Source: Dehalococcoidia bacterium (GTDB taxonomy: Bacteria > Chloroflexota > Dehalococcoidia > DSTF01 > JACRBR01). Taken from it: a stretch of 64,000 nucleotides of DNA. The notes under the pieces are model-generated. The model saw only the letters and a list, made by a program, of their open reading frames with translations. It was not told the DNA's origin and did not search any database. Below are positions 2,352 through 59,597 of the stretch, piece after piece (positions within the stretch are counted from its first letter, which is position 1; each line of letters begins with the position of its first letter). The stretch is taken from the NCBI GenBank assembly GCA_040902535.1, contig JBBDXD010000019.1, positions 6,773 through 70,772 of the forward strand, in the 5' to 3' direction. Both the position numbers and the translations under genes were made by a program.

Positions 2352-3065
2352 GTGCGCATGGCGGGAAGTTCTATCGTGGAGAAGGCGCGGGCCGAAGGGC
2401 GCACGCTGCTGACGGAGATCGAGGCGAAGCAGATGCTCGAAGAGGCGGGGGTGCCGGTGTCGCCGGCGCGGCTCGCCACGACGCGCGACGAGGCGATGGC
2501 CGTCGCGCGGGAGCTGGGCTTTCCGGTCGTGCTGAAGATCGTGTCGCCGCAGATCACGCACAAGAGCGACGTCGGCGGCGTGGCGCTCGGGCTGACGTCG
2601 GCGGCGGAGGCGGGCGAGGCGTTCGACCGCGTGGTGGCATCGACGAAGCAGCACGTGCCGGACGCGACGATCGAGGGCGTGGCGGTGCAGCGGATGGAGC
2701 GCCAGGGCACGGAAGTGATCGTCGGCGTGACGAGGGACCCGCAGTTCGGGCCGGTGCTGATGTTCGGGCTCGGCGGCGTGCTCGTCGAGGTGCTGAAAGA
2801 CGTCGCGTTCCGCGTCATCCCGATCAACGAGCGCGACGCGCGGCAGGTGATCCACGAAATCAAGGGCTACCCGCTGCTCGAAGGCTATCGCGGCAGCGAA
2901 GCGGCGGACATCGGCAAGCTGCAGGAATTGTTGCTGCAGGTATCGTCGTTCGTCGAGGCGCATCCGGAGATCGCGGAGTTGGACCTGAATCCCGTGTTCG
3001 CGTACGCGGACGGGGCGATCGCGGTGGATGCGCGGATCGTGATTGACGAGACAACAGACAACTGA
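2352..3065 (+). CDS. acetate--CoA ligase (ADP-forming) beta subunit, ATP-grasp domain
   Basis: 237 aa; ATP-grasp-like GFPVVLKIVSPQITHKSDVGGV, LGGVLVEV, ELDLNPVF motifs typical of NDP-forming acyl-CoA synthetase beta subunits. Confidence 0.75.
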   Translation: MRMAGSSIVEKARAEGRTLLTEIEAKQMLEEAGVPVSPARLATTRDEAMAVARELGFPVVLKIVSPQITHKSDVGGVALGLTSAAEAGEAFDRVVASTKQHVPDATIEGVAVQRMERQGTEVIVGVTRDPQFGPVLMFGLGGVLVEVLKDVAFRVIPINERDARQVIHEIKGYPLLEGYRGSEAADIGKLQELLLQVSSFVEAHPEIAELDLNPVFAYADGAIAVDARIVIDETTDN

Positions 3066-3166
3066 CAACAGAGGGAACAGCAAACAGCAAACGGCAAACG
3101 GCAGACGGCAAAGGGTTGGAACGGCACCGCGAACGTGCGAACTGGTGAGGGCTGATGCATAACGTC
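3062..3166. repeat. ~100-bp direct repeat unit, copy 1 (contains heptamer array CAGCAAA/CGGCAAA x5)
   Basis: ctgacaacagagggaacagcaaac...cgaacgtgcgaactggtgagggctgatgcataacgtc; second copy at 3215-3312 (~85% identical). Confidence 0.7.
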
Positions 3167-3385
3167 ATCCTGAGCGAAGCTACGTCCCTACGATCGGCGC
3201 GCAACGATAGACGACTGACAACAGAGGGAACAGCAAACAACAAACAGCAAACACCAAATGGTTAGAACGACACCGCGAACGTGCGAACTGGTGAGGGCTG
3301 ATGCATAACGTCCCTACGATCGGCGGATCGCGGCGGTGGGCGTTACGCACCGAGAGATGCTTCGCTTCGCTCTGCATGACGGGGC
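3163..3385. repeat. composite REP/MITE-like element with imperfect terminal inverted repeats
   Basis: Left end tcatcctgagcgaagc (3164-3180) is reverse-complementary to right end gcttcgcttcgctctgcatgac (3353-3378); contains two copies of core ctacgtccctacgatcgg (3179-3202, 3308-3333) that recur at 33838-34020 and inverted at 39290-39345. Confidence 0.45.
3215..3312. repeat. ~100-bp direct repeat unit, copy 2
   Basis: Same 5' (ctgacaacagagggaacagcaaac) and 3' (cgaacgtgcgaactggtgagggctgatgcataacgtc) ends as copy 1; internal heptamer array diverged. Confidence 0.7.
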
Positions 3386-3433
3386 ATGGTGTGTGCAGCA
3401 CGCCAACGACGTAGAACTGATAACTGAGCACTT

Positions 3434-4873
3434 ATGACTCAATCCTTCGATCTCAAGCGCGCATTGAACCCGAAGACCGTCGTCGTTGTCGGGTCGAAGC
3501 GCGCTGACGGGTATATGTGGCTGCGCAACTACGCGCCGTTCGGCGAGAACGGCGGCGCCCTGTACTCGGTGCAGATCGACCCGAACGAGATCCCCGGCAT
3601 CGAAGAGATGGGCGTGAAGAACTTCACGTCGCTGATGGACGTGCCGGGCGACGTCGACTACGTGATGCTCGCGGTGCCGCGGCCGGTGGCGCCGCGTGTC
3701 ATGGCGGACTGCGCGAAGAAGGGCGTGGGGGCCGCTGCGCTGTTCACGTCGGGGTTCGCGGAGACCGGCGAAGAAGAGGGCATCAAGCTGCAAGCGCAAC
3801 TGTTGCAGATCGCGCGCGAGGGCTACATCGCGCTGATCGGGCCGAACTGCATGGGCCTGTACAACCGCAAGCTGGGCATCCGGCAGAGCGGCGAGCAGGG
3901 CGCGGGCGAGGCGGGCGACGCCGGCTTCATCTCGCAGAGCGGGACGCACGCGATCAACTTCGGGCTCGTCGGCGAGGCGCACGGCGTGCGCGTCAGCACG
4001 TCGATCAGCATCGGCAACGCAATCGTGCTCGATGTGCCCGACTATCTCGACTACCTAGCCGACGACGTCGACACGAAAGTGATCGCGATGTACGTCGAGG
4101 GGTTCAAGGACGGCCCGCGCTTCGTGCAGTCGCTCAAGCGCGCGACGGCGAAGAAGCCTGTGGTCGTCTGGAAGGGCGGCGTGACCGACGCGGGCGCGCG
4201 CGCGACGATGTCGCACACGGGATCGCTGGCGGCGTCGAACGCCGTGTTCAGCGCGATCGTCAGGCAGGCGGGCGCGATCGCCGCCGACAGCCTCGAAGAC
4301 ACGATCGACGTCGTAAAGGCGCTGCTGTACACGAAGCCGGCGACGGGGCGGCGCATGGGGCTGATGGCGATGACGGGCGGCCAGTCAGTGGTGATCACCG
4401 ACGCGTTCGTGAACGCGGGGCTCGAAGTGCCGCGGCTGTCCGACGCTTCGTACGAGCAGCTTGCGTCGTTCTTCAACATCATCGGCGGCAGCTACCAGAA
4501 CCCGCTCGACATGGGCGGCACGATCGGTTTCGGCGGCGCGCCGGGAAACTTGCAGAAGCTGCTCGACATCCTCGACGCCGACCCGAACGTCGACGCGATG
4601 GCGATGGAGATGGCGTCTGGCTTCCTGGCGCGGATGTGGCGCGCGAACCCGGCGAGCCTCGACAGCATGCTCGACACGCTGACGGCGCATCGCGACCGCT
4701 CGTCGAAGCCGTTCCTGGTGATCTTGCAGCCGCAGCACGTCGAGGACATCGTGCGGGAGGCGCGGCTGCGCGTGCAGGAGCGCGGGCTGGCGGTGTTCGC
4801 GTCGTTCGAGCGCGCGGCACACGCGCTGCGGAGGGCTGTGGAGTACCGGCGGTTCGCGGCGGGGATGGATTAA
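3434..4873 (+). CDS. acetate--CoA ligase (ADP-forming) alpha subunit (CoA-binding + succinyl-CoA-synthetase-like domains)
   Basis: 479 aa; N-terminal CoA-binding Rossmann (KTVVVVGSKRADGYMW), LIGPNCMG, ISQSGT motifs. Confidence 0.8.
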   Translation: MTQSFDLKRALNPKTVVVVGSKRADGYMWLRNYAPFGENGGALYSVQIDPNEIPGIEEMGVKNFTSLMDVPGDVDYVMLAVPRPVAPRVMADCAKKGVGAAALFTSGFAETGEEEGIKLQAQLLQIAREGYIALIGPNCMGLYNRKLGIRQSGEQGAGEAGDAGFISQSGTHAINFGLVGEAHGVRVSTSISIGNAIVLDVPDYLDYLADDVDTKVIAMYVEGFKDGPRFVQSLKRATAKKPVVVWKGGVTDAGARATMSHTGSLAASNAVFSAIVRQAGAIAADSLEDTIDVVKALLYTKPATGRRMGLMAMTGGQSVVITDAFVNAGLEVPRLSDASYEQLASFFNIIGGSYQNPLDMGGTIGFGGAPGNLQKLLDILDADPNVDAMAMEMASGFLARMWRANPASLDSMLDTLTAHRDRSSKPFLVILQPQHVEDIVREARLRVQERGLAVFASFERAAHALRRAVEYRRFAAGMD

Positions 4874-6207: not shown

Positions 6208-6627
6208 ATGCGACGAAACATCAGCAGCGGATCGAAGTGGGAGCCGATCGTCGGGTATGCGCGGGCGGTGGTGGCGGGCGGCTACGTGCACGTCTCGGGC
6301 ACGACGGCGACCGGCGCTGACGGCGAGATCGTCGGCGCGGGGGATGCGTACGCACAGGCGATGCAGGCGCTGCGAAACATCGAGGCGGCGCTGGCGCAGG
6401 CCGGCGCTTCGATGCGGGACGTCGTGCGGACGCGGATGTACGTGACGGACATCGAGCGCGACTGGGAGGCCGTCGGGCGGGCGCACGGCGAGTTCTTCCG
6501 CGACGTGCTGCCGGCGACGTCGATGGTGCAGGTGGCGCGGCTGATCGACGAGCGGATGCTCGTCGAGATCGAGGCGGACGCATTCGTTGGAAGCGGGATG
6601 CGGGAGGCCGGAGGCGGGAACTCGTGA
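6208..6627 (+). CDS. RidA/YjgF family reactive-intermediate deaminase
   Basis: 139 aa; [24 protein letters not shown] ... RTRMYVTD ... [10 protein letters not shown] typical of YjgF/RidA fold. Confidence 0.8.
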
Positions 6628-6776
6628 TTCGGCGTCAAGTTTGCGTTCGACCACGGGTCCCGCAACCGATGTTGCGATTGCTATCCCGTCCTGTGGCTTA
6701 GAATATGTTCAGTGGCGGCCGCGCGATCCAGACTGACCGCCGACCCGCTGACCGCTGACCGCTCGCCCCCGCAAGC

Positions 6777-7790
6777 GTGAAGGACTCTGCCTTGCACATG
6801 CCATTTCTGCCATCGCCCGGTGGGCGCTTCCGGATGCCGCTGTTCGGGTTGGCGTTGCTGCTGCCGCTGGCGTTCATCCCGCTGTCGCACTGCAAGTCGG
6901 ACAAGCCGCCGCCGCCGCCGGGCCCGGTCGGCTACGGCGTGCTGGAGTTCGCCGGCAGCGAGGACAGCGACGCGCTCGAGCACGTCAACTCGCTCGGCAT
7001 CAACGTCTTGTTCAACTGGTCGGAGCTGGAGCCGGAAGAAGGCGTGTACGACTGGGGCGAACTGGACGACGCGCTCGCCATCGCCGAGATACACGGGAAG
7101 CGCGTCGCGCCGCGCGTGTACACCAGCGCCAGCGACTTTGGCGAAGCGACGCCGGACTGGGTATTCGATGCCGGTGCCGAGGGTTACATCCCGGACGACG
7201 ACAAGGAAGTCGTGCAGCCGGTGCCGACCGACCCGGTGTTCACGCAGAAGTTCGGCGCGTTCCTGCAAGCGCTCGGCGACCGCTACGACGGACACCCGGC
7301 GATCGAGTTCTTCCAGACGAACGCGGGCATGGGCACGTTCGGCGAGATGGTGTGGGGTGTGCCCGATCACAACAAGCCGGACGGCTGGTCGCCTGACGTG
7401 CAGATCGAGACGTCGAAGTACTGGATCGACGAGTGGCGCGAAGCGTTTCCGAATACGCCGCTCGTGTTGATGGAGAACTTCGTCGGATTCGGGATCCTCG
7501 AGGAAGTAGCGGAGCACGCCGTCGACCGCGGCTTTTATCTGCAGGCGAACGACCCGGACCAGCCCGACGAATCGATCGACGTCATGCGCGAGTACGACGG
7601 CGACACGAAGATCATCATGGAGATCGAGGACGCCGGCTGCCAGTCGGCGCTGGGCGACGAGTTCGACGAGACGGTCGAAGAGGTGTTCGCGATGGACTTT
7701 TCGATCGACTATCTGACGATCTGCGGCGAGACGTTCGAGTTCGAGTCGGAGCGCGTAGACCGGGCGATCGCGAAGCTGCGGCGGCCGTGA
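6777..7790 (+). CDS. lipoprotein, putative TIM-barrel glycoside hydrolase (GH42/GH35-like N-terminal motif)
   Basis: Signal peptide with lipobox LSHC; NWSELEPEEGVYDW resembles GH42/GH35 beta-galactosidase N-terminal motif. Confidence 0.5.
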   Translation: MKDSALHMPFLPSPGGRFRMPLFGLALLLPLAFIPLSHCKSDKPPPPPGPVGYGVLEFAGSEDSDALEHVNSLGINVLFNWSELEPEEGVYDWGELDDALAIAEIHGKRVAPRVYTSASDFGEATPDWVFDAGAEGYIPDDDKEVVQPVPTDPVFTQKFGAFLQALGDRYDGHPAIEFFQTNAGMGTFGEMVWGVPDHNKPDGWSPDVQIETSKYWIDEWREAFPNTPLVLMENFVGFGILEEVAEHAVDRGFYLQANDPDQPDESIDVMREYDGDTKIIMEIEDAGCQSALGDEFDETVEEVFAMDFSIDYLTICGETFEFESERVDRAIAKLRRP

Positions 7791-7801
7791 GTTTGGCGGC
7801 C

Positions 7802-7822
7802 GGATGCTGGATGCTGGATGCT
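7802..7822. repeat. heptamer tandem repeat (GGATGCT)x3
   Basis: ggatgctggatgctggatgct 12 bp after stop of 6777-7790; followed by aacctgacttaaaactgagaacttaaaactgac low-complexity spacer. Confidence 0.6.
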
Positions 7823-7913
7823 GGCGCAGCACTTAGAGCCTCGAACCCGGAACCTGACTTAAAACTGAGAACTTAAAACTGACGCCTTAGCACTGCGACC
7901 GAAGGGAGCCACC

Positions 7914-8261
7914 ATGCCCAACGACGCCTGTCTGTTCTGTCGCATGGCGTCCGGCGAGATCGATGTCCCGAAGTTGTACGACGACGACCTGGTGTTCGCG
8001 ATCCGCGACATCAATCTCCGCGCGCCGGTGCATCTGCTGATCATCCCGAAGAGTCACATCGACGACGCGCGCGTCGTCGGCGACCGGCAGTCGGCGACGC
8101 TGGGCCGCATGTTCGCGGTGTCGTCGGCGCTGGCGGAGGGCGAGGGGCTGCGGGAGCGGGGGTATCGCATCGCGTTCAACGTCGGCGAGGACGCAGGCAT
8201 GACGGTGTCGCATCTGCACATGCATGTGCTGGGCGGGCGGCGGTTGGGGGCGGAGGGGTAG
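7914..8261 (+). CDS. HIT-family (histidine triad) nucleotide hydrolase
   Basis: 115 aa; C-terminal HLHMHVLGG histidine triad. Confidence 0.85.
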   Translation: MPNDACLFCRMASGEIDVPKLYDDDLVFAIRDINLRAPVHLLIIPKSHIDDARVVGDRQSATLGRMFAVSSALAEGEGLRERGYRIAFNVGEDAGMTVSHLHMHVLGGRRLGAEG

Positions 8262-8282
8262 GTGGCAGGGAGTTCGGAGGGC

Positions 8283-8423
8283 GGAGTTGGGAGAGAGAGC
8301 AAACGGCAAACGGCAAACGGTGAACAGCAAAGTGGACGACGGACAACAGACAACAGACAGCAGACAACAGACAACAGAGGGTACGTCGCTGACACCTGAC
8401 ACCTGACACCTGACACCTGACAC
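8283..8423. repeat. mosaic of heptanucleotide tandem arrays (GCAAACG)x3, (GACAACA/GACAGCA)x5, (CTGACAC)x5
   Basis: Directly readable 7-nt periodicity; the (CTGACAC)5 block (8389-8423) ends 13 nt before the ATG of 8437. Confidence 0.8.
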
Positions 8424-8436
8424 CCTGGAGTGCACG

Positions 8437-9018
8437 ATGCGGATCTCGTTGTTGTGGCTGTTCGTATTGGCGGCGCTGATCCTTCACGCCGGGCCACAAC
8501 AGGCGTTCGCGTGTTCGTGCGGCGGCTCGCCCCCGACGGACGACGAGTTGATGCGGGCGCGGCTGGCATCATCGGAGCGCGCGCTGGTCGTCGCGATCGT
8601 CGAGGGGCCGGTTGAGGCGAAGCCGATCGATGGCAGCCGATATGCCACGCTTCCAGGCGCCGCCTTCCGCGCCGAGCGCGTGTATCGCGGCGACGTGCCG
8701 GCGCGCTTCGAGATGGGGTACGTCACATGCACGAGGCCGCCCGAGTTCACCCGCGGCAGCCGCTGGCTCGTCGAAATGACGCAATTCGAGGGTCGGTGGC
8801 AATCTGACCTCTGCTCAATCACGACCGAGGTCGGATCACGGCAGGGGCAGCGCTACGTCCCTTCGATCAATCGGATCCTGGGAACGCCGCCGCTGCTGCC
8901 GAACGATGACGGCGGCGCGTCGATGCTCACGGTGGCACTCGCAGTCGCCGGATTGGGCGCGGCCGCGGGTGCGGCGGGGTACGTTGCGCGGCGGTGGCAA
9001 CGGGAACATCATTCGTGA
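8437..9018 (+). CDS. secreted, C-terminally membrane-anchored N-TIMP/NTR-like (OB-fold) putative metalloprotease inhibitor, paralog 1
   Basis: Signal peptide MRISLLWLFVLAALILHAGPQQAFA|CSC; mature Cys1, Cys3, Cys73, Cys101 (TIMP-2 disulfides are C1-C72, C3-C101); ERALVVAIVEGPVEAK ~ TIMP ADVVIRAKAVSEK; RVYRGDVPARFEMGYVTC ~ TIMP KMYKGF..IRFVYTP..SVCG; C-terminal TM + RRWQREHHS. Confidence 0.55.
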   Translation: MRISLLWLFVLAALILHAGPQQAFACSCGGSPPTDDELMRARLASSERALVVAIVEGPVEAKPIDGSRYATLPGAAFRAERVYRGDVPARFEMGYVTCTRPPEFTRGSRWLVEMTQFEGRWQSDLCSITTEVGSRQGQRYVPSINRILGTPPLLPNDDGGASMLTVALAVAGLGAAAGAAGYVARRWQREHHS

Positions 9019-9059
9019 GCGGGGCGTCATACTCGTAGGCAAGGCGGATGAGGTGGGCT

Positions 9060-9629
9060 ATGCGCGTCCTCATGCCATTGGTGGCGGCGATCAGCGCGGT
9101 GGCGGTGCTGTTTCACGCGGGACCGCAGCAGGCGTTCGCGTGCATATGCGAAGAGATGCCACATGACGACGCAAGGACGCGAGAGGTACTGGCGGACGAC
9201 CGGCTGGACACGAACTTCATCGTCGCACGCGTCGTTGAGGACCTGACGGTGCCCGGCGACGCGGCCGCCGCTGTGCGGACGCAACGCGTCTATCACGGCG
9301 GGACGCCGCCGTCGTTCGAGGTGCACCTGGTGGGCTGCAGCGGCGGCGCCGGGCCCTTTCGCGCAGGCGATGAGTGGCTCCTCGACGTGTGGCACGCGAG
9401 GGGCGAGTGGCGAGCGAGCGACTGCTGGTCCGGACCCGTGCAGTCCGGCCGTACGCAGCGATTCCTGGCGTCGCTCGACCGCGTGTCGCCGTCGCGACCG
9501 TTCGTGTGGACGGGAGAAGACGACGGCTGGCCGATGCCGGTCGCCGCCTCGGTCGCGGCGGCCGTCGCCCTGCTGACACTCGCGGGCGTATGGCGTGGCA
9601 ACCGGGGTCGGCCGGACAGCGAGCGTTAG
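9060..9629 (+). CDS. N-TIMP/NTR-like putative metalloprotease inhibitor, paralog 2
   Basis: MRVLMPLVAAISAVAVLFHAGPQQAFA|CIC; Cys1, Cys3, Cys66, Cys95; RBS GAGGTG 5 nt upstream; C-terminal TM anchor; start 9060 preferred over ORF-track 9048. Confidence 0.55.
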   Translation: MRVLMPLVAAISAVAVLFHAGPQQAFACICEEMPHDDARTREVLADDRLDTNFIVARVVEDLTVPGDAAAAVRTQRVYHGGTPPSFEVHLVGCSGGAGPFRAGDEWLLDVWHARGEWRASDCWSGPVQSGRTQRFLASLDRVSPSRPFVWTGEDDGWPMPVAASVAAAVALLTLAGVWRGNRGRPDSER

Positions 9630-9715
9630 GGCGCAGTCGTCGTGCCCGAAGCGGAACTTCCGTCGCGACGTATTCGTCCTGCTCGCGCGGGCATCAGACG
9701 TCTCAGGAGGAACGC

Positions 9716-10316
9716 GATGCGATTCGTAATGCCGATGGTTGCGACGATCGCCGCGGTGGCGGTGCTGTTTCACGCGGGACCGCGGCAGGCGTTCGCGTGC
9801 ACGTGCGCGCCGTTGCCGGACGGTCCAAGCCGCGCCCGGGAAGTCATGGAGTCCGTCGACGTGCTTGTGCTGGGCGAGGTCGACGAACGGACGAATGGCG
9901 AGCATGATCCGTATCCAACAGCGCGCGTGCGCGTCGAGCGGGCGTATGCGGGAAACATCGCGTCAGATGTTGCCGTGAGATCGGCGAACTGCAACGGGAT
10001 CATCGTGGACTTCAAGAAAGGTCAGCGATGGTTGATGGCGTTGTCGGAGCGCGACGGCGGCTGGCAGGCGCATGGATGCAGCGCAGGCCTGGTAGACGGC
10101 GTACGGACCGGGCGCTACAACGACGGCGACGTGTGGCTCGCAGCGCTCGACCAGATCGTCCCGCCTCCAACCGTCGGCGATACCCCGCTGTCAGCGACAG
10201 TCATCGTGGATGACGAGGATGACGCACCCACTCTCGCGATCGCATCCACCGTGGTCGGGTTAATGACCGTGATGCTCGGGTGTGTGTACCTGGCGGGGCG
10301 GCGCGCGCGGGTGTGA
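9716..10316 (+). CDS. N-TIMP/NTR-like putative metalloprotease inhibitor, paralog 3
   Basis: MRFVMPMVATIAAVAVLFHAGPRQAFA|CTC; Cys1, Cys3, Cys65, Cys94; RBS AGGAGG; C-terminal TM + RRARV; start at 9716 rather than ORF-track 9642. Confidence 0.55.
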
Positions 10317-10344
10317 GCGCTCCGCTGCGCCTTGCACCAGATCG

Positions 10345-10777
10345 CTAGCTGCGCGCAGCCAGCCCTGCCACCACCTTCGGCAGCGCGGCGAGCATGCGGT
10401 CCCATCCGTACTCGGCGCCGCGCAGCGCCTGCGTGCCCCACGGCTGCGTCATGTCGAAGCCCGACTGCTCGAAGAAGAGGCGCGTGCCGTCGCCGTCCGG
10501 CTCGAGCCGGTAGCTGACGCGGGTGTCGATGCCGCCGCCCGCCCACGAGTACGCGAGACGGCTCGGCTGCGCGCACTCGAGCACCTCGCAGCGGACGATG
10601 CCGTCGAAGCCGGCCTGCGGGTTCGGGTCCGTCTTGAACGTGAAGCGATGCCCGACGCGCGGCTCGAAGTCGTTCGGTATCAGCCAGCCAGCGAGCGCGG
10701 CGCTGTCTGTGAGCGCGCGCCAGACGTCTTCGGCGGGCGTGCGGGACGACGATCTCTCGTTGAATGCTGTCGGTCAT
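10345..10777 (-). pseudogene. SRPBCC / AHSA1-like (activator of Hsp90 ATPase homolog) protein, apparently frameshifted near N-terminus
   Basis: Good RBS (GGGAG) + ATG at 10777 encodes MTDSIQREIVVPHA then goes out of frame; the SRPBCC-like reading frame (…PAEDVWRALTDSAALAGWLIPNDFEPRVGHRFTFKTDP…YRLEPDGDGTRLFFEQSGFD…) is open from 10774 to 10345 but has no start codon before M at 10584; shift lies in cacgcccgccgaagac. Confidence 0.5.
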
Positions 10778-11109
10778 TGTTCGCTCCCTTTCGTCAGTTG
10801 TTGCTGAAGACGCTGCAGGTGTTCGTCCCAGAACCGCTCGTAGTGCGCGATCCAGTCCCGCACGGCGCCGAGCCCCTCGGGCGCCAGCCGATAGCGACGC
10901 TCGCGGCCGTGACGTTGTTCGCTCACGAGACCGGCATCGAGCAGGATGCGGAGGTGCTGCGAGACGGCGGGCCGGCTCATGTCGAAGTGCCCGGCGAGCG
11001 CGTTGACGGGGCGGTCGCCCTCTGCGAGGAGATCGAGCATGCGACGCCGCGCCGGATGGCTGATCGCGCCGAAGACCTCGGGTTGGCGCTCGGCAGTCGC
11101 AGTGGCCAT
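10774..11109 (-). CDS. ArsR/SmtB-family HTH transcriptional regulator
   Basis: HPARRRMLDLLAEGDRPVNALAGHFDMSRPAVSQHLRILLDAGLV; TATAAT hexamer 7 nt upstream of ATG suggests leaderless mRNA; start at internal M (11109) preferred over 11259. Confidence 0.7.
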   Translation of the reverse strand: MATATAERQPEVFGAISHPARRRMLDLLAEGDRPVNALAGHFDMSRPAVSQHLRILLDAGLVSEQRHGRERRYRLAPEGLGAVRDWIAHYERFWDEHLQRLQQQLTKGSEQ

Positions 11110-11257
11110 GCGGAGATTATAGGTAAGGCTTTGCTTACGTGTCAGCCGGCGTGCGGCGCCGTCTTCGCATGGCTGGCGCTGGCCCGGTGCCCGATTGAGG
11201 CGCCGCCGCGCCGCGTGCCACACTGATCTCGCGCACCACACCCGCGCCCGGTAAGCC

Positions 11258-12484
11258 ATGACTCACGTGCTCTCCCGATTCGTCCCGCACGCGATCCTCG
11301 CCGCCGTGGCGGCGCTGTGCGTCGTCGTTTCGGCGGCGGTGGCGGCCGCGACGCCGCTGCCTTCGGGCGACGATTACAACTCGGCGGGATTCATCGTCCG
11401 GCACGCGTGGCAGAAGTTCGCCTACCAGGCGACGGACATCTTCCGCGACGACCTCAGCCGCGCCGGCGAAGATGCGCGGCTGGCGCGCTTCTTCGAGTTG
11501 AACCGGCTGATCCGCGACGGCGAACGCGTCGCCGGCGACCCCGCGACATCGACGTCGGCGGCGGCGGCGACGCACGCGCAGCTCGAGACGTGGCGCGACG
11601 AGCGCGCGGGCATCGAGAACAGCGTCGAGGTGATCCTCGAAGGCCGGCTGACGGCGACGGTCGAGGACCTCGGGCTGACGCGCCGGTTCGGCGGCGAGAT
11701 CGTCTGGCCACCGGTGAACATCGAGTTCGAGGGCACGCCGTCGGTGCTGGTGCGCTCGCCGCGGTCGGAGATCCGCAAGGATTCGCAGCGGCTGCTGCAG
11801 GGCGACCTGCCCGTCGAGCGCGTGCAGGAGATCGAGGCGGCGGCGGAGCGCGACGGCGCGACGTCGGCGCTGGTCGTGCGCATCGGCGGCATCGCTATGT
11901 ACCCGGCGATCATCCCGCCGTCGGAGGACTATCGCTTCGTGCTGCAGGACATCGCGCACGAGTGGCTGCACCACTACCTGTACTTCGCGCCGCTGGGGCG
12001 CCGCTACTACGAGAGCGGGGAGCTGACGACGCTGAACGAGACCGTAGCGAACATCGCCGGCAACGAGATCGGCGAGTTGATGTACGAGCGCTATCCGCTG
12101 CCGGAGACGCAGGCGAGCGCCAACGCGCAGCCGGCGCCGCCGGTCGCGCAGGCGCCCGCGTCGACGTTCGACTTCACGTCGGAGATGCGCGCGCTGCGTC
12201 GCGACGTCGAGGCGCTGCTCGCTAGCGGCGACGTCGTCGGGGCGGAGCGGCTGATGGAGGAGACGCGGCTGTACCTGGCCGAGAGCGGCCGCTACATCCG
12301 CAAACTCAACCAGGCGTACTTCGCGTTCCACGGCTTGTACGCCGATGGCGCCGCGTCGATCGACCCGATCGGCCCGAAGCTGGAATCGTTGCGCCAGCGC
12401 AGCGGATCGGTGGGCGCGTTCGTGCGTGCGGCGCAGGAGCTGCGTTCGGCGGGGGAGTTGGACGAGATGCTTCACGGGCCGTAA
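11258..12484 (+). CDS. secreted hypothetical protein with HExxH motif (putative zinc metallopeptidase)
   Basis: N-terminal signal peptide; IAHEWLHHY (HExxH) with E ~22 residues downstream (gluzincin-like spacing); otherwise no recognisable family. Confidence 0.5.
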   Translation: MTHVLSRFVPHAILAAVAALCVVVSAAVAAATPLPSGDDYNSAGFIVRHAWQKFAYQATDIFRDDLSRAGEDARLARFFELNRLIRDGERVAGDPATSTSAAAATHAQLETWRDERAGIENSVEVILEGRLTATVEDLGLTRRFGGEIVWPPVNIEFEGTPSVLVRSPRSEIRKDSQRLLQGDLPVERVQEIEAAAERDGATSALVVRIGGIAMYPAIIPPSEDYRFVLQDIAHEWLHHYLYFAPLGRRYYESGELTTLNETVANIAGNEIGELMYERYPLPETQASANAQPAPPVAQAPASTFDFTSEMRALRRDVEALLASGDVVGAERLMEETRLYLAESGRYIRKLNQAYFAFHGLYADGAASIDPIGPKLESLRQRSGSVGAFVRAAQELRSAGELDEMLHGP

Positions 12485-12503
12485 GGCCTCGCAGAAGGCT
12501 GGG

Positions 12504-12532
12504 CGTGAAAAAAATGGGTTGCTTTTTTCACG
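12504..12532. promoter_or_regulatory. 10-bp perfect inverted repeat cgtgaaaaaa-N9-ttttttcacg between 11258-12484 and abiEi
   Basis: Read directly; lies 14 bp upstream of AbiEi ATG and 20 bp after preceding stop. Confidence 0.35.
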
Positions 12533-12545
12533 AATTAGATTCACA

Positions 12546-13184
12546 ATGCCTCATGGGTGGACAGTGAGCACTACGGCGACGATCTCACATCGGATTCGAA
12601 AGCGCATTGATCAGCACCGTCCTGGCTGGGTCTTCACCCCGTTCGACTTCATCGACCTAGGATCACCAAGCGCCATCGGGATGACGCTGCAGCGGCTTCG
12701 ACAAGAGGGGAGCATCCGTCGCATCGCACGGGGAATTTACGAGCTGCCGAAGTCGCACCCACGCCTTGGCAAACTCGCTCCCACTCCTGATGCGGTGGCC
12801 GAGGCACTTGCCCGCCGCAGCGGTGCGCATTTCCAGCCGTCGGGTGGGGCGGCGGCGAACATACTACGCCTGTCTGAGCAAGTCCCCGCCCAGCATATGT
12901 ATGAAACTGACGGCAGAGGCCGGACGCTTCACATCGGAAACCAGACCATCACGCTTAGAAAGGCCGCGACGAAGAAGCTAACGGCTGCGCCGACAAGCAA
13001 TCTGGTATTCGCTGCTCTTCGAAGCATTGGAAGACAGAACACAACGAAGAGGCGCGTCTCCCACCTGCGTTCAACATTATCTCCACGAGATCGGAGACAG
13101 CTACTCAAAGATCTCCCACGGGCTCCGGTATGGATGCACGAGCTGCTGCGCTACATCGCGATCGACTCCGGCGATGAACGATGA
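12546..13184 (+). CDS. AbiEi-family type IV toxin-antitoxin/abortive-infection antitoxin (wHTH)
   Basis: 213 aa; IARGIYELP wHTH-like N-terminal domain; 4-bp ATGA overlap with downstream AbiEii; lower GC. Confidence 0.7.
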   Translation: MPHGWTVSTTATISHRIRKRIDQHRPGWVFTPFDFIDLGSPSAIGMTLQRLRQEGSIRRIARGIYELPKSHPRLGKLAPTPDAVAEALARRSGAHFQPSGGAAANILRLSEQVPAQHMYETDGRGRTLHIGNQTITLRKAATKKLTAAPTSNLVFAALRSIGRQNTTKRRVSHLRSTLSPRDRRQLLKDLPRAPVWMHELLRYIAIDSGDER

Positions 13185-14200
13185 ATTTTGCTCAACTGCC
13201 AATAGAGGAGCGACAGACCTTCATCGCCGAGGCAGCAGCCCGCCTTGGCGTCTCCGAGGTTCTTGTTGAGAAGGACTTCTGGGTTTGCTGGACTCTGGCG
13301 CGGATATTCGGCGTTCCTGAGATCGCTCCGCACCTCGTGTTCAAGGGGGGAACGTCGCTTTCCAAGGTCTTCAATGCAATCAAACGTTTCTCTGAAGATA
13401 TAGATCTCTCAATCTCGCCTGGGATTCTTGGAGTTGAGGAGAGCACCCTATGGGAGGCACCGTCAAAGAAGCAACGCCAACAGCGCGTGGAAGCATTGGA
13501 GATTGCATGCATCGCCTACGTCCGGGACGACGTGCAGCCGAAGCTAAGGGCGGCGTTCCGGGACGTGCTGAACGGCTATAGCGAACAGTGGGAGTTGAGG
13601 TTCGAACTTGACGGCGCTGTCGGATCGCCGAACCTCTTGTTCTCATATCCCTCCGCCGGGACAACACCCGTCTCCTACTTTCGGAAGAGCGTCAAACTTG
13701 AGTTTGGCTCTCTCTGCGATCAGATTCCGTTCGACAAGCACGCCATCACTCCTCTGATTCAGCGGGTAATTGATGAGCCATTCGACGACTTCGAGATCCT
13801 AGTGATCGCGCTTGAGTTCGGGCGCACATTCTGGGAAAAGGCAACGATACTTCATGCAGAGAACCATAGACCAACGGATCGTCCATTCCGCGATCGGATC
13901 GCACGTCACTATTCAGACTTCGCGGCTCTTTGGAGCCATCCGTTGGCGGGGCGGGCTGTTGAGAACCGCGAGATGCTGAGATCCGTGGTTCGACACAAGC
14001 AAATGTTCTTCCCGTCGGGCTGGGCGAGCTACGACACGGCTCAGTCACCCACGATGCGGTTAGTCCCACCGAAACGTAGGCTTCGCGAACTAGAGACTGA
14101 TTACCTCGCTATGCAGGAGATGTTCCTGAAGGCGCCTCCTGGCTTTGCCTTGGTTGTCGAGGAGTTGCAGCGCGCAGAGATCGCGATTAATTCGTCCTAA
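13181..14200 (+). CDS. AbiEii/AbiGii-family nucleotidyltransferase toxin (DUF1814)
   Basis: 339 aa; LVFKGGTSLSKVF...FSEDIDLSI nucleotidyltransferase fold signature of AbiEii. Confidence 0.75.
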   Translation: MNFAQLPIEERQTFIAEAAARLGVSEVLVEKDFWVCWTLARIFGVPEIAPHLVFKGGTSLSKVFNAIKRFSEDIDLSISPGILGVEESTLWEAPSKKQRQQRVEALEIACIAYVRDDVQPKLRAAFRDVLNGYSEQWELRFELDGAVGSPNLLFSYPSAGTTPVSYFRKSVKLEFGSLCDQIPFDKHAITPLIQRVIDEPFDDFEILVIALEFGRTFWEKATILHAENHRPTDRPFRDRIARHYSDFAALWSHPLAGRAVENREMLRSVVRHKQMFFPSGWASYDTAQSPTMRLVPPKRRLRELETDYLAMQEMFLKAPPGFALVVEELQRAEIAINSS

Positions 14201-24139: not shown

Positions 24140-24199
24140 CAGGTTGGGAGCGGAAGCGCAACGGTGGTGGAAGCGGGAAGCGAGAAGCGGGAGGCGGGA

Positions 24200-24919
24200 T
24201 CAGGTTGAGACGGTGTAGACGTCTGACGACGTGACCTCGCGGGGCATGGATTCGAGCATCGCGAGCCGCGGGTCGCCGTGCGCCGCCAATATGCGCGACA
24301 GCAGGCGGTCGCCGAAGCGCTCGAAGTAGGAGCACTCTTTGCGAAACGCGAGCAGCGTGCGACGGTCGCCGCCCAGCAGCACATGTTCGATCTCGTCATC
24401 GTACGGCGTCAGCTTCTCGTGCGACGTCTCGCACGCCTTCTCGAACAGTTCGTGTACCTGCTTGTCGCGGATGCGGGCGAAGCGCGTCGAGGATTGGCCG
24501 CCCTTGCGATGCTTGTTCTTCACGAAGCGCTGGTCGACCTTCGAGTCGACGAGCTTGTTGCCGCGAAAGAAGCCGACGGCAAAGCCGCCGAGGCGCAGCA
24601 GGAAGACCGCGTACGCCCGCTGGCGCTCAAGCGATTCGACGAGCGGCGCGACGTGGACCTCGTCGAAGGCGCCGTCGCGGTCGAGCCGGAAGGGCGGCAC
24701 GACGAGCGTCACGCCGCCCGCATGTTCGAACAGGACCGATCCCGTGTCCGACGCCGCAGCGATCTCCTCGAGCCGGGCAGCGTCGTCGGGATCGATGACG
24801 GCCGTCAGCGAGAGAGCGTCGCCGGGATTCGCATACACGGTGCGGCCGGCGCTGCCGTCGGGGGGCAGTGTCGCCAGCACGCGCTGCTTCGGCTCGTGAG
24901 TGCGCTCGATGGCCATTGG
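24200..24919 (-). CDS. acVLRF1-family (Vms1/ANKZF1-like, eRF1-fold) putative peptidyl-tRNA hydrolase
   Basis: FVKNKHRKGGQSSTRFARIRDKQ (GGQ/GSQ-like loop in conserved context). Confidence 0.6.
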   Translation of the reverse strand, partial: PMAIERTHEPKQRVLATLPPDGSAGRTVYANPGDALSLTAVIDPDDAARLEEIAAASDTGSVLFEHAGGVTLVVPPFRLDRDGAFDEVHVAPLVESLERQRAYAVFLLRLGGFAVGFFRGNKLVDSKVDQRFVKNKHRKGGQSSTRFARIRDKQVHELFEKACETSHEKLTPYDDEIEHVLLGGDRRTLLAFRKECSYFERFGDRLLSRILAAHGDPRLAMLESMPREVTSSDVYTVST

Positions 24920-24987
24920 CGGCAGCGTACCGGTCGCGCCGCGCGGCTGCTCGCCGCTAACGGCGGCTCGCTGTACGGTAGCGCGAC

Positions 24988-25794
24988 ATGGCAAGCGAAA
25001 CGAGCGGAGGTGCGCGCGTGCGGACGTTGGTGAGGGACGGCGTAGGCCTGGCCGTCGAGGAGGCGGGTGCGCCTGACGCGCCGGTGCTCGTCTTCGTACA
25101 CGGCTGGACGTGCGACCGGTCGCACTTCGCGCCGCAGGTCGCGCACTTCTCGCCGGCGTATCGCTGCGTGTCCGTCGACCTGCGCGGCCACGGCGAAAGC
25201 GACGCGCCGGAGCAGGATTACACGATCGAAGCGCTCGCGGATGACGTCGCGTGGATCTGCGACAGCGCGAATGTCGCGGACGCGGTGTTCATCGGGCACA
25301 GCATGGGCGGGACGATCGTGCTGGCGTTATCGCACGCGCGTCCGGACCTGGTGCGCGCGCTTGCGCTGTTCGACCCGGCAATCCTCTTTCCGCCCGACGT
25401 GCAGACGCTCGCCAACCAGCTCGCCGATGCGTTCGCCGCGCCAGGCGGCATGGACACGGTGCGCCAGTTTGAAGATCAGCGATTCTTCACGTCGACGAGC
25501 GACGCGACGCTCAAGCAGCGCGTCGTCGATGCCGCCTGCTGCACGCCACAGCACGTGGTGGCGTCGGCGTTCAGGAGCGTCGCGACGTGGGATGCGCGGC
25601 CGGCGCTCGAAGCCGTGCGCGTGCCGATGCTGTACGTCGGTGCGGAGCCTCAGACCGCCGATATGGCGGTGCTTCGCGAACTGGCGCCGAAGACGATGAT
25701 CGGCAACACCGTGGGTTCGGGGCACTTCCACCAGCTCGAGGTGCCCGAGCAGATCAACGCGATGCTCGCGCGGTTTCTGCAGATCGCCGGGTAG
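24988..25794 (+). CDS. alpha/beta-fold hydrolase
   Basis: VFVHGW ... IGHSMGG nucleophile elbow ... GHFHQLE. Confidence 0.75.
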   Translation: MASETSGGARVRTLVRDGVGLAVEEAGAPDAPVLVFVHGWTCDRSHFAPQVAHFSPAYRCVSVDLRGHGESDAPEQDYTIEALADDVAWICDSANVADAVFIGHSMGGTIVLALSHARPDLVRALALFDPAILFPPDVQTLANQLADAFAAPGGMDTVRQFEDQRFFTSTSDATLKQRVVDAACCTPQHVVASAFRSVATWDARPALEAVRVPMLYVGAEPQTADMAVLRELAPKTMIGNTVGSGHFHQLEVPEQINAMLARFLQIAG

Positions 25795-25911: not shown

Positions 25912-25939
25912 CACTTAAGTACATACTAATACTTGAGTG
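25912..25939. promoter_or_regulatory. AT-rich palindrome cacttaagta-N8-tacttgagtg; candidate IdeR/DtxR-type operator
   Basis: 10-nt arms with 1 mismatch, 20 bp upstream of Fe3+-SBP start; TTGACG -35-like at 25873. Confidence 0.4.
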
Positions 25940-25958
25940 CTTTGGGACGGTTTACCCT

Positions 25959-31431: not shown

Positions 31432-31573
31432 CCTGCCAAGCGTTTGCATGTTGACTCCTTAGTCCTTATACAGACAAAGGATAATTGCAACAGCCAACCG
31501 TCAATGGCGAACAGCGAAACAGCCAACAGCACAACAGAAAGACCACAGAGGCGCACGTCACAGGAGCTACGCA

Positions 31574-33837: not shown

Positions 33838-34020
33838 ACATCCGCGTCGCGGACGCAGCTAAGGCGGCAACTCGCCACACCCCACCCCCCTGTGCGCGGG
33901 AACATCCGCGCGCGGACGCAGCTAAGGCTACGTCCCTACGATCGGGTCGATCGCGACGATGGCGTGGGACAACGACTTGCTGGAGCTACGTCCCTACTAT
34001 CGCGTTCGATCGCGGAGACC
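33838..34020. repeat. REP-like repeat cluster: two gaacatccgcg(t/c)gcggacgcagctaaggc sub-repeats followed by two tandem ~50-bp units starting gctacgtccctac(g/t)atcg
   Basis: Units share core with 3179-3202 / 3308-3333 and inverted 39290-39345. Confidence 0.7.
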
Positions 34021-34042
34021 GCGTGGGGAATGACTTGCGCGA

Positions 34043-34654
34043 TCAGACGTCCTGGCGGTTTTCGATCGCGCGCGAGAGCGTGACGTCATCGGCGTACTCG
34101 AGGTCGCTGCCCATCGGCAGGCCGCGCGCGAGCCGCGTCACGCGGACGCCGAGCGGCGTCAGCAAGCGGCTCACGTACATCGATGTCGCTTCGCCTTCCA
34201 GGTTGGGGTTCGTCGCCATGATCACTTCGTGCACGGAGCCGCCTCGAATGCGCGCCAGCAACTCGTTGATCTTGAGATCGTCGGGGCCAATGCCGTCCAT
34301 CGGGGAGATGACGCCGTGCAGGACGTGGTAGCGCCCGTGAAAACCCCGCGTGCGCTCGACGGCGAGAATATCGAGCGGCTCCTCGACGACGCAGATGACC
34401 GAGCGGTCGCGGCTGTCGTCGCGGCAGACGGAGCAGGGGTCCTCTTCGGTGACGTTCTGACACGTCGAGCAGAGGACCGTGCGCTCCTTCAGGTCGATGA
34501 CGGCCTGGGCCAGCGCGAGCGCTTCGTCCGGCGGGATGCGCAGGAGATGGTACGTGAGGCGCTGTGCGCTCTTGGGGCCGATGCCCGGGAGCTTGTGGAA
34601 CTCTTCGATGAGCTTGGCGACGGGTGCGGGTGCGGCGGTGAGCGGTTCGTTCAT
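34043..34654 (-). CDS. recR: recombination protein RecR
   Basis: HhH (KLPGIGPKSAQRL), C4 zinc finger CSTCQNVTEEDPCSVC, Toprim. Confidence 0.9.
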   Translation of the reverse strand: MNEPLTAAPAPVAKLIEEFHKLPGIGPKSAQRLTYHLLRIPPDEALALAQAVIDLKERTVLCSTCQNVTEEDPCSVCRDDSRDRSVICVVEEPLDILAVERTRGFHGRYHVLHGVISPMDGIGPDDLKINELLARIRGGSVHEVIMATNPNLEGEATSMYVSRLLTPLGVRVTRLARGLPMGSDLEYADDVTLSRAIENRQDV

Positions 34655-39289: not shown

Positions 39290-39345
39290 CGGAAAGTAGG
39301 GACGTAGCTTTAGCTGTGTCCGCGCGCGGATACTCCCGCGCGCAC
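39290..39345. repeat. inverted copy of REP-like element (agtagggacgtagc ... gtccgcgcgcggatactcccgcgcgcac)
   Basis: Reverse complement of gctacgtccctact and of gtgcgcgggaacatccgcgcgcggac seen at 33895-33944. Confidence 0.65.
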
Positions 39346-39375
39346 GGGCGGGGGCGACGTGCCTCGATTGCCCGA

Positions 39376-39441
39376 CTTCACTTAAGACTTACAACTGAAA
39401 ACTGACAACTAACTGCAGACTTACAACTGACAACTCGCCCC
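39376..39441. repeat. degenerate heptamer/low-complexity array (acttaca actgaaa actgaca ... caactgacaact)
   Basis: Abuts stop of GS gene; reverse-complementary in motif to array at 40837-40878. Confidence 0.55.
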
Positions 39442-40824: not shown

Positions 40825-40836
40825 GATATACGGTTC

Positions 40837-40878
40837 GTCAGTTGTCAGTTGTCAGTCGTCGGTCGTCAGTCGTCAGTG
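40837..40878. repeat. heptamer tandem array (GTCAGTT)2(GTCAGTC)(GTCGGTC)(GTCAGTC)(GTCAGTG)
   Basis: Six perfect-register heptads 13 nt upstream of GS start codon (in 5' leader as CUGACRA on mRNA strand). Confidence 0.8.
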
Positions 40879-41015
40879 GAGACGGGGCCGCCGACTCTTC
40901 GAGCCACGCCGCAGCCGCAGCGCAGGTGGAGAACAGCCGCCCTCGGCTGTTGCGCGGCGCAGCCGCGAATCCGCGACCACTTACAACTGATTACTGACCA
41001 CTGAAGACTAAAAAC

Positions 41016-59300: not shown

Positions 59301-59555
59301 ATGAAGCACGCTACACCGATCGCGCTCGACGCGCTGGAGCCGCTGCTCGATCAGCTACGCGCGCTCGACGGCGTGACCGAGCGCAAGCGCGGCGTGTTCT
59401 ATCGCAAGTCGCAGGCCATGCTGCACTTCCACGAGGATCCGGCGGGCTTCTTCGCCGACCTGCGCCTGCCGCCCGGCTGGGTGCGGCTGCCGGTGAACAC
59501 CGCGGCGGAACGTAAGCGGCTGGTGGCTCAGCTTCGAACGGCGCTCAAGGCCTGA
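59301..59555 (+). CDS. hypothetical protein
   Basis: 84-aa ORF, balanced composition. Confidence 0.4.
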   Translation: MKHATPIALDALEPLLDQLRALDGVTERKRGVFYRKSQAMLHFHEDPAGFFADLRLPPGWVRLPVNTAAERKRLVAQLRTALKA

Positions 59556-59597
59556 CCGGCTGACGCCTGAAAGGATGGACGACCCAACGGACGCACG

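Follow-up and report, generated by a model that had tools for sequence, protein, structure and literature searches.

A spacer written in steps of seven: heptanucleotide arrays between a HIT-family gene and a TIMP-like gene of an uncultured soil Dehalococcoidia bacterium

Why should the intergenic spacer ahead of a small cluster of genes for secreted proteins be composed almost wholly of tandem heptanucleotides, and do these repeats serve that gene cluster in particular? The spacer in question separates a HIT-family gene from a gene that we call T1, and lies within a 64,000-nucleotide stretch of genomic DNA from a Dehalococcoidia bacterium that was analysed as a whole and is referred to below as the window. 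A preliminary description of this DNA had placed three abutting arrays of 7-nt repeats in the 5′ leader of a 'TIMP-like operon', and had proposed that they act either as slipped-strand variable spacers that alter promoter or ribosome-binding-site geometry, or as arrays of binding sites for protein or RNA. The account that we favour, with moderate confidence, is that the HIT-T1 spacer is a slippage-driven heptanucleotide microsatellite of the LSSR or STRR-like kind, one of many in the genome, which does not constitute a dedicated switch.

The three period-7 arrays of the 175-nt spacer were confirmed both by the sequence itself and by TRF, as was the distance of 13 nt between the last full CTGACAC unit, which is on the sense strand, and the T1 ATG (Table 1). 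The arrays do not strictly abut, since stretches of degenerate heptads, 21 nt and 12 nt long, lie between them, yet all three share one 7-nt register, and a fourth array, (GGAGNNN)4 at 8270-8297, had been missed. The HIT stop codon occupies 8259-8261 and the T1 ATG begins at 8437; between them a single register of about 24 heptads spans 8270-8436, such that the spacer is written in steps of seven. Read from position 8270, these heptads are GAGTTCG GAGGGCG GAGTTGG GAGAGAG AGCAAAC GGCAAAC GGCAAAC GGTGAAC AGCAAAG TGGACGA CGGACAA CAGACAA, and they continue up to the T1 ATG as CAGACAG CAGACAA CAGACAA CAGAGGG TACGTCG (CTGACAC)x5 CCTGGAG TGCACGA TG. The autocorrelation of the spacer falls from 0.64 at lag 7 to 0.57 at lag 14 and 0.49 at lag 21, and is about 0.25 at other lags. 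Array 1 contains 3 perfect GCAAACG copies at 8299-8320, the remainder being degenerate units, and in array 2 the third of five copies is the variant GACAGCA. Array 3, (CTGACAC)5, carries TGA in all three frames. The spacer is poor in T (16 T in 175 nt) and has a GC content of 58%, as compared to 66% for the window. A motif related to the junction between arrays 2 and 3, GACAACAGAGGG, is found again near 3060-3075 and 3215-3230. A small ORF at 8224-8406 within the tract, which overlaps the HIT gene out of frame, was considered and discarded as unsupported.

Table 1. Heptad arrays and associated features of the window, with positions numbered from its first nucleotide.
Feature	Position	Strand	Description
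GACAACA, AACAGCA/AACGGCA arrays	3045-3267	+	ACD beta-alpha spacer, duplicated 146-nt module
GAACTGA TAACTGA GCACTTA heptads	3411-3433	+	run into ACD alpha ATG, no SD visible
CTGACCG array	6733-6763	+	upstream of GH42-like gene; conserved with variation in L018
(GGATGCT)3 and ACTTAAA/ACTGAGA heptads	7802-7894	+	GH42-HIT spacer
HIT-family gene	7914-8261	+	Pfam HIT, E=1.5e-22
HIT-T1 intergenic spacer	8262-8436	+	175 nt; A58 C44 G57 T16
Sub-array (GGAGNNN)4	8270-8297	+	GAGTTCG GAGGGCG GAGTTGG GAGAGAG
Array 1, GCAAACG	8299-8331	+	TRF: 4.7 copies, 80%
Array 2, GACAACA	8342-8378	+	TRF: 5.3 copies, 93%
Junction GAGGGTACGTCG	8377-8388	+	two degenerate heptads in register
Array 3, (CTGACAC)5	8389-8424	+	TRF: 5.1 copies, 100%
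GGAG Shine-Dalgarno-like site	8427-8430	+	6 nt upstream of T1 ATG, outside repeats
T1	8437-9018	+	secreted, C-terminally anchored; Cys-x-Cys N-terminal after signal peptide; predicted NTR/TIMP-like fold
T2, T1 paralogue	9048-9629	+	
T3, T1 paralogue (ORF)	9642-10316	+	
GGAAGCG array	24158-24211	+	between two minus-strand genes
CAACAGC-type array	31488-31537	+	upstream of aldo-keto reductase gene
ACTGACA/ACTTACA array	39378-39437	+	convergent region downstream of glnA-like gene
ACTGACG/ACTGACA array	40835-40877	-	sense orientation, just upstream of glnA-like gene
ACTGAnn array	40972-41023	+	inverted relative to 40835-40877

Since an independent Logan contig (L001) matches the tract exactly until it ends inside the CTGACAC array, and since homologous arrays are also present in the JGI contigs L018 and L024, the tract is not an artefact of assembly. 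The same-strain contigs L001, L019 and L020 all match the window at 100% identity; as L001 stops within the CTGACAC array, it yields no copy-number polymorphism. Exact look-ups of T1 and T2 found no contig.

The HIT relatives, whose identity is 52-72%, are without exception from Dehalococcoidia/Chloroflexota MAGs, and T1 is identical to the hypothetical protein WEB52_09690 of an NCBI Dehalococcoidia MAG. The host is a free-living, uncultured soil member of the Dehalococcoidia. T1, T2 and T3 each possess a signal peptide, a conserved AFA-C-x-C motif, two more conserved cysteines and a C-terminal membrane anchor. Comparison of T1 with Pfam and PDB sequences gave no match, including none to Pfam TIMP. 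An AlphaFold (AF2) model of T1 (pLDDT 79) was compared by Foldseek, and its top matches were N-TIMP-1/2/3 and complement C345C/NTR domains, with probabilities of 0.97-0.99 but weak E values (about 0.02) and TM scores of 0.52-0.59. The label 'TIMP-like', which the preliminary description had used, is a fair one at the level of the modelled fold, and an inhibitor function for the T1 family is putative. Five of these relatives, which are more distant ones, carry the genes in the order ACD-beta, ACD-alpha, RidA, GH42-like, HIT and p408, with short, array-free spacers. In the window T1-T3, an AHSA1-like ORF and an ArsR gene sit between HIT and p408, and this block is an insertion relative to L002, L003, L005, L006 and L010.

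Heptads are by no means confined to this one spacer. TRF detected 13 period-7 arrays in the window with a score of at least 40, as compared to an expectation of 0.07, which is the mean over 30 dinucleotide-preserving shuffles of the window at the same threshold. In the same TRF analysis, multiples of three aside, none of the remaining periods was enriched, and nearly all of the strong period-7 arrays are intergenic. A sliding lag scan of the window returned nine segments at lag 7, totalling 643 nt, and zero segments at lags 4, 5, 8, 10 and 11. According to the window gene map all nine are located in spacers or at gene ends, and the longest of them, 8275-8441, is the HIT-T1 tract. Within the window, 9 or more spacers besides this one contain the unit families of the tract. 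For example, GACAACA and AACAGCA/AACGGCA units reappear at 3045-3267, and ACTGAnn units also occur at 3411-3433, 6733-6763, 7857-7894, 39378-39437, 40835-40877, 40972-41023 and 59553-59575. The arrangement CTGA-N3-CTGA is present 13 times in the window against 1.3 expected, a count reached in none of 100 shuffles. The arrays at 40835-40877 and 40972-41023 pair as a long hairpin. Neighbours of the arrays include genes for ADP-forming acetyl-CoA synthetase subunits, the GH42-like and HIT genes, a glutamine-synthetase-family gene, an alpha-amylase-family gene, an aldo-keto reductase and an NYN-domain protein, which have no common function. Given that unit families are shared between spacers with unrelated flanking genes, the HIT-T1 tract is one case of a genome-wide phenomenon and, contrary to the earlier description, is not peculiar to the 'TIMP-like operon'. 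In related loci totalling 246 kb the lag scan gave 17 segments at lag 7 versus 0-3 at lags 4, 5, 8, 10 and 11; here too, lag 7 alone was enriched among lags not divisible by three. These loci use other units, such as the GGGAGCA-type unit of which L011 holds about 19 copies (93% matches), and inverted heptad pairs are found in L007 and L015.

A metagenome scan with T1, together with look-ups of T1 homologues, yielded an allele series of six informative contigs. L018, which shares about 80-85% DNA identity with the window, has a like architecture with a spacer of 150 nt. Its array 2 comprises two GACAACA units as compared to five in the window, a gap of 21 nt or three units, and its third array is degenerate (CTGACAA A CTGACAC CTGACGA CGA CTGACAA CTGATAA). 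L024 is about 99% identical to L018 over 412 nt, from which it differs by 5 substitutions and a single indel of exactly 7 nt, namely an extra AGCAAAC unit in array 1 of L024. Copy number among strains, which the preliminary description had suggested comparing, therefore varies in whole units, with one unit separating alleles of about 99% identity and three units separating the window from its roughly 85% identical relative, and the proposal of a slipped-strand variable spacer is borne out to this extent. The sequence of the units turns over as well. Array 3 is degenerate in both L018 and L024 and absent in L021, L016 and L023. In L021, whose T1 is 87% identical, at least four GATGGAC units are followed by GACGGAC GACAGAC AACCGAC AACAGAC AACAGAA and a further 75 nt of unrelated sequence, with no CTGACAC array. 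In L022 about seven CTGGAGG-type units, 4 of them exact, follow the HIT stop codon, an expansion of the GGAG sub-array. L016 and L023 (T1 83-84% identical) have a spacer of just 36 nt, which consists of GGAG-type units without the three arrays and ends GGAGGTCGGGTG-ATG; the three-array tract is thus dispensable in these lineages. The (GGAGNNN)4 sub-array is the only part of the spacer common to all relatives. The junction GAGGGTACGTCG is the same in the window, L018 and L024, and the GGAG site upstream of T1 is kept in L018, L024 and L016. Turnover is also evident in the GH42-HIT spacer, where L016 has ACTGA-type heptads in reversed orientation and L018 has T/G-rich TGTGAGT heptads.

The relationships of these alleles bear on how the differences arose. 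At four-fold sites of the HIT gene L016 and L018 are identical at a fraction of 0.81, and either compared to the window at 0.67-0.69. Because L016 is nearer to L018 by this measure, either the L016 lineage lost the three-array tract or the tract has passed from one lineage to another. Where the spacers of the window and L018 can be aligned they share 85% identity, which is level with the flanking coding DNA and above four-fold sites (64-67%), and therefore some constraint or homogenisation acts on the spacer. The perfect (CTGACAC)5 of the window, as compared to the degenerate arrays of L018 and L024, looks like the product of recent homogenisation or expansion.

Could changes in unit number reset the geometry of a promoter? 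Scans for sigma-70-type promoters and for terminators found none in or near the tract. The CTGACA units resemble a -35 element, and a promoter based on them was considered and rejected, as by inspection none of the units has an acceptable -10 at a distance of 16-18 nt. Near 6695-6706 there is a conserved GGCTTAGAATAT that could, at a guess, be the -10 of the GH42-like gene, with poor -35 spacing. At the gathering threshold Rfam gave only a tRNA in the whole window, and permissive searches (E<=1) of 7700-8700 and 3000-3450 gave no match. The 36-nt spacer of L016 and L023 is too short to hold a promoter and a leader. Co-transcription of T1 with HIT is therefore probable, which would make the tract an intercistronic spacer and not the 5′ leader with a promoter of its own that had been supposed. 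With a stop codon on one side of the tract, an intact Shine-Dalgarno site on the other and no promoter found, unit changes would alter only the length of an untranslated spacer. The suggested switch of promoter or ribosome-binding-site geometry is thus unlikely, given the missing promoter-like site, the conserved GGAG outside the repeats and the array-free spacers of L016 and L023, and on/off phase switching by the tract is not supported. A conserved array of binding sites is unlikely too, since neither unit sequence nor copy number is conserved among relatives.

Taken together, we infer that replication slippage or unequal exchange, in steps of entire 7-nt units, built the tract and probably still remodels it. 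Such a process is indicated by the single register, by the exact one- and three-unit indels, and by unit families that lie one or two substitutions apart, as do AACGGCA, AACAGCA, AACAGAC and ACCTGAC. Point mutations in single units, followed by local amplification, would produce a mosaic of related unit families in one register. The tract would be transcribed, between the HIT stop codon and the intact GGAG site of T1, as an intercistronic spacer of a GH42-like/HIT/T1-T3 transcript, and its copy number would drift among strains without on/off switching of T1. Any effect on T1 would be at most quantitative, by way of spacer length, local RNA structure or all-frame stop codons, and the tract would thus have no dedicated function.

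The alternative with the next best claim, unlikely but deserving of consideration, is that the tract is an RNA-level cis element whose sense-strand, A/C-rich, CTGA-core heptads act in translation from upstream of the ribosome-binding site. They could form a single-stranded standby or landing region, or an all-frame stop 'insulator' at which stray ribosomes come off ahead of T1, or a multivalent site for an RNA-binding protein of the S1, Csp or CsrA type. A role of this sort has been proposed for the TAACTGA repeats of Beggiatoaceae. The TGA codons in three frames of array 3 and the conservation of the spacer above synonymous sites are consistent with such a role. So is the placement of the arrays: all nine of the window arrays that lie upstream of start codons (9/9) are A/C-rich on the sense strand, arrays end 0-30 nt ahead of start codons, and a like placement has been described for TAACTGA (MacGregor 2015, PMC4679880). 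The spacer RNA of the window is predicted to be less structured than 200 of 200 shuffles (z=+2.9 and +2.6), but z is -0.2 for L018, -1.4 for L024 and -0.7 for L022; selection for an unstructured spacer was accordingly rejected as a conserved property, low structure being particular to the window allele. Further evidence comes from contigs of a viral collection, 40 of which contain (CTGACAC)3 and 16 (GACAACA)3, as compared to 8 and 9 for two control heptamers of the same composition; (CTGACAC)3 is 4-5 times commoner than these controls. The ratio of sense-upstream to antisense positions relative to an ORF is 16:3 for (CTGACAC)n and 6:1 for (GACAACA)n in a crude, heuristic count (ORF of at least 80 aa, array at most 80 nt upstream of the ORF start) in which both control units lean likewise (3:1 and 2:1). 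Many of the viral cases are ordered stop codon, (CTGACAC)n, Shine-Dalgarno site, ATG. The orientation bias and the excess of (CTGACAC)3 suggest RNA-level selection, at least as a filter, and our reading is that selection filters the orientation and composition that are tolerated in leaders, a positive translational role being possible. What weighs against an RNA element at the HIT-T1 spacer is that unit sequences and copy numbers vary among relatives, that the tract is absent in L016 and L023, and that even the orientation and composition of the GH42-HIT heptads differ in L016 and L018, respectively. An RNA-based alternative of another kind, which is the least probable of all those weighed here, would make the RNA of arrays 2-3 a putative Rho-loading (rut-like) site, with T1-T3 expression tied through polarity to efficient translation initiation. 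Positions 8342-8424 do contain 28 C versus 17 G in 83 nt with little predicted structure, within a 175-nt untranslated stretch, but this region is missing in L016 and L023, and in L018 and L024 it is predicted to fold against the G-rich 5′ part of the spacer.

Two further explanations concern the DNA. It is very improbable that the tract is a contingency locus, phase-variable or rheostat-like, that tunes or switches the secreted T1-T3 proteins through slippage. Copy number does differ between strains, the downstream T1-T3 are secreted, membrane-anchored proteins, and a 5′-UTR tetranucleotide repeat tunes expression of Moraxella UspA2 (cited in PMC4679880). However, the tract is located outside ORFs and not between promoter hexamers, with no promoter-like site found, and the Shine-Dalgarno-to-ATG geometry of T1, which falls outside the repeats, stays as it is when units change. 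Moreover, like repeats adjoin housekeeping genes throughout the window, and the host is a free-living soil bacterium and no host-adapted pathogen. Improbable as well is the notion that the arrays belong to a small composite element of the MITE-like kind, dispersed or mobile, which arrived with or beside the T1-T3 island. In its favour, GACGAC-n-GACAACAGAGGG stands before or after AACAGCA/AACGGCA units at 3045-3124, 3204-3267 and 8334-8388, the block from T1-T3 to ArsR is itself an insertion relative to five related loci, and another dispersed repeat (33881-33939 / 39296-39354, and 3166-3195) adjoins arrays. Gain by transfer also fits as well as loss to the observation that L016, which has no arrays, is nearer to L018, which has them, than to the window. 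Terminal inverted repeats, target-site duplications and a transposase are nonetheless lacking, the order of the modules varies between copies, and the island is present in L016 and L023 without arrays. A single register with one-unit polymorphism is, by contrast, what in-place slippage predicts.

Slippage would also align the tract with a class of heptanucleotide repeats that is already described from cyanobacteria, Xanthomonas, Burkholderia, Beggiatoaceae and Chloroflexus. In the cyanobacteria Calothrix and Anabaena the STRR units are CCCCAGT, TTGGTCA and CAACAGT (STRR3). The arrays of the window are like these STRRs in being tandem intergenic heptamers with several unit families per genome, and GACAACA, when rotated to CAACAGA, is identical to STRR3 at 6 of 7 positions. 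Unlike STRRs they occur in a host with Dehalococcoidia/Chloroflexota and not cyanobacterial affinities, and none of CCCCAGT, TTGGTCA or CAACAGT is found in tandem on either strand of the window. The earlier designation 'STRR-like' is thus apt for heptanucleotide repeat DNA of that general kind, but no canonical STRR unit is tandem here.

In contrast, the accompanying statement that such arrays are foreign to high-GC heterotrophs is incorrect, because heptamer arrays have been reported in high-GC Burkholderia, Xanthomonas and Actinobacteria. According to the summary in PMC4679880 of Mrazek, Guo and Shah (2007), heptanucleotides are the most abundant class of long SSR in many bacterial genomes, abundant heptamer SSRs occur in these three high-GC groups among others, and polymerase slippage was proposed as their origin. 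Rehm et al. 2015 (PMC4692102) described intergenic GGGAATC-type heptameric repeats in Xanthomonas and Nostoc. These vary in length and sequence among close relatives, include inverted pairs and bear no relation to gene function. The HIT-T1 tract resembles these LSSRs closely: its 7-nt units run head to tail, and such arrays exceed chance in the window (13 versus 0.07 in shuffles), occupy many non-coding loci (the nine lag-7 segments in spacers or at gene ends), change by whole units among close relatives (7 nt between L018 and L024, 21 nt between the window and L018), form some inverted pairs and follow no functional gene theme. It differs from the Xanthomonas and Nostoc repeats in its Dehalococcoidia host and in its A/C-rich units (GACAACA, CTGACAC, GCAAACG), which are not G-quadruplex-forming, and from known LSSRs in that four unit families make up the entire 175-nt spacer as a mosaic in a single register. 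Within the same phylum, Chloroflexus aurantiacus has 22 satellites derived from (GATAGRA)n (Subirana and Messeguer 2019, PMC6749651), which are likewise heptamer-derived tandem arrays at many loci, although the unit sequence differs and the class is Chloroflexia, as compared to Dehalococcoidia here. In a search of the literature, no report of heptamer repeats from Dehalococcoidia in particular came up.

The TAACTGA heptads offer another comparison. MacGregor 2015 (PMC4679880) reported them a short way ahead of start codons in marine Beggiatoaceae, some cyanobacteria and Bacteroidetes, and proposed a translational role for them. The window arrays share with them a CTGA core, a forward orientation and a position few nucleotides upstream of the start codons of many unrelated genes; (CTGACAC)5 and the arrays at 3411-3433 and 40835-40877 are all in the sense orientation just upstream of start codons. 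In particular, the GAACTGA-TAACTGA heptads that run into the ACD alpha ATG without a Shine-Dalgarno site resemble the Beggiatoaceae repeats. At the HIT-T1 spacer, in contrast, the unit is CTGACAC, and a normal GGAG site follows the array and is neither replaced nor overlapped by it. TAACTGA occurs in the window as two single copies (3421 and 55248) and never in tandem, its neighbour at 3421 being GAACTGA. As none of the STRR or TAACTGA units is tandem in the window, the tract belongs strictly to neither family. Finally, phase-variation repeats and 5′-UTR rheostats, such as the AGAT repeat of Moraxella UspA2, are similar in that they, too, place a variable repeat ahead of a gene whose product is a surface or secreted protein. 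They differ in that a contingency repeat is situated in an ORF or at promoter elements; the HIT-T1 tract, positioned between the HIT stop codon and the Shine-Dalgarno site of T1, is tied to neither promoter spacing nor reading frame, and its kind occurs genome-wide at housekeeping genes in a free-living host.

A broader proposal can be framed from these comparisons, one that we regard as quite doubtful. CTGA-core, A/C-rich heptads such as CTGACAC, ACTGACA and TAACTGA could be a cross-phylum class of sense-oriented repeats in 5′ leaders and intercistronic spacers, kept for their action on translation, with members in Dehalococcoidia, in many phage or prophage contigs and, from earlier work, in Beggiatoaceae, cyanobacteria and Bacteroidetes. 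If this were true, the heptads would serve as all-frame stop and ribosome landing pads or as multivalent docking sites of a conserved RNA-binding protein, and the HIT-T1 tract would be a functional member of a post-transcriptional network and not junk. At the least, the idea of a translational role would be revived if the sense-strand bias of CTGA-core heptads holds. In the slippage account that we favour, the HIT-T1 tract would be a clean natural case of a bacterial intergenic spacer built almost wholly by 7-nt slippage. Tracts of this kind break short-read assemblies and could serve as strain markers, and with the alleles resolved here to a single unit, the range over which heptanucleotide microsatellites are known comes to include uncultured soil Dehalococcoidia.

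Heptad arrays, i.e. tandem repeats of period 7, are found in many spacers of the window, and the (CTGACAC)n family also occurs in viral sequences. We found (CTGACAC)3 or longer in 40 contigs of the IMG/VR collection (L025-L064), ranging from 37 to 70% GC, while two control heptamers of the same composition were 4-5 times rarer in this collection than (CTGACAC)3. The usual site in these contigs is on the sense strand, between a stop codon and the SD-ATG of the following gene, and in several of the 40 an inverted GGTGTCA-type array lies immediately upstream. In the same strain as the window, the Logan k-mer assembly L001 ends within the perfect CTGACAC array (window ~8418), a break that would fit the presence of further (CTGACAC)n loci or else of variants within the sample that differ in copy number.

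The spacer between the subunit genes of the ADP-forming acetyl-CoA synthetase (3066-3433) measures 368 nt, as compared to 38-75 nt in the related loci L002 and L005. It includes a 146-nt tandem duplication (3064-3166 versus 3210-3312, 83%), whose duplicated module is a composite of heptad arrays and approximately 60 nt of unique sequence. The 3′ end of the spacer, GAACTGA-TAACTGA-GCACTT, directly abuts the ATG, with no Shine-Dalgarno site visible before this start codon, and an Rfam search of the spacer returned no match.

Arrays also flank the gene of the glutamine synthetase family. Pairing between the two inverted arrays on its 5′ side is predicted to give a long hairpin (MFE -98 kcal/mol, z=-5.0), and the array on its 3′ side (39378-39437) is oriented opposite to the 5′ array. 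Inverted heptad pairs of a similar kind were also observed in the related loci L007 and L015 and in several viral contigs. One copy of a dispersed repeat of approximately 59 nt is directly adjoined by a heptad array; the core of this repeat recurs at 33927-34052, where it belongs to a tandem duplication of 58 nt, and again in the 3.1-3.3 kb spacer (3166-3195). The repeat may represent a small mobile or REP-like element.

Repeats, genes and motifs located in the window
Feature	Position	Strand	Description
Dispersed repeat, ~59 nt	33881-33939 and 39296-39354		Copies complementary, 86%; contains GCTACGTCCCTACGATCGG
Inverted heptad-array pair	40835-40877 and 40972-41023, within 40825-41030	minus	Between NYN-domain gene and glutamine-synthetase-family gene
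AbiEi/AbiEii-type toxin-antitoxin pair	12345-14200		Low-GC stretch, 55-58%; Pfam families listed for contigs L019 and L020, which are 100% identical to the window
Gene with Actinobacteria/Chloroflexi VLRF1-type release-factor domain (acVLRF1, baeRF family 10)	24200-24994		
Operator-like motif	62401-62426		Upstream of gene; palindrome-containing 13-mer GAACGCGTTCACA, two copies as direct repeat
Operator-like motif	25915-25955		AT-rich inverted repeat CACTTAAGTA...TACTTGAGTG, immediately 5′ of ATG at 25959

The block at 8437-11259 comprises three tandem paralogues (T1-T3), an AHSA1-like ORF and a divergent ArsR-family regulator, and in comparison with five other Dehalococcoidia MAGs it sits as an insertion between HIT and p408, the gene that follows HIT in those genomes. 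The paralogues are secreted proteins with a C-terminal anchor, and their predicted fold is NTR/TIMP-like; their family has no Pfam model, and a search of 5.8 billion proteins yielded only 7 homologues. The AbiEi/AbiEii-type pair was probably gained by horizontal transfer, as a defence or toxin-antitoxin module.

A GGAAGCG heptad array separates the acVLRF1-domain gene from an alpha-amylase-family gene. In the RidA (L-PSP) gene, a heptad array rich in G (GGAAGCG GGATGCG GGAGGCC GGAGGCG; 6586-6633) makes up the final ~13 codons, which suggests that a repeat tract was absorbed into the 3′ end of this gene; the RidA 3′ tail of L018, a relative ~80-85% identical to the window in DNA, differs from this heptad-encoded tail.
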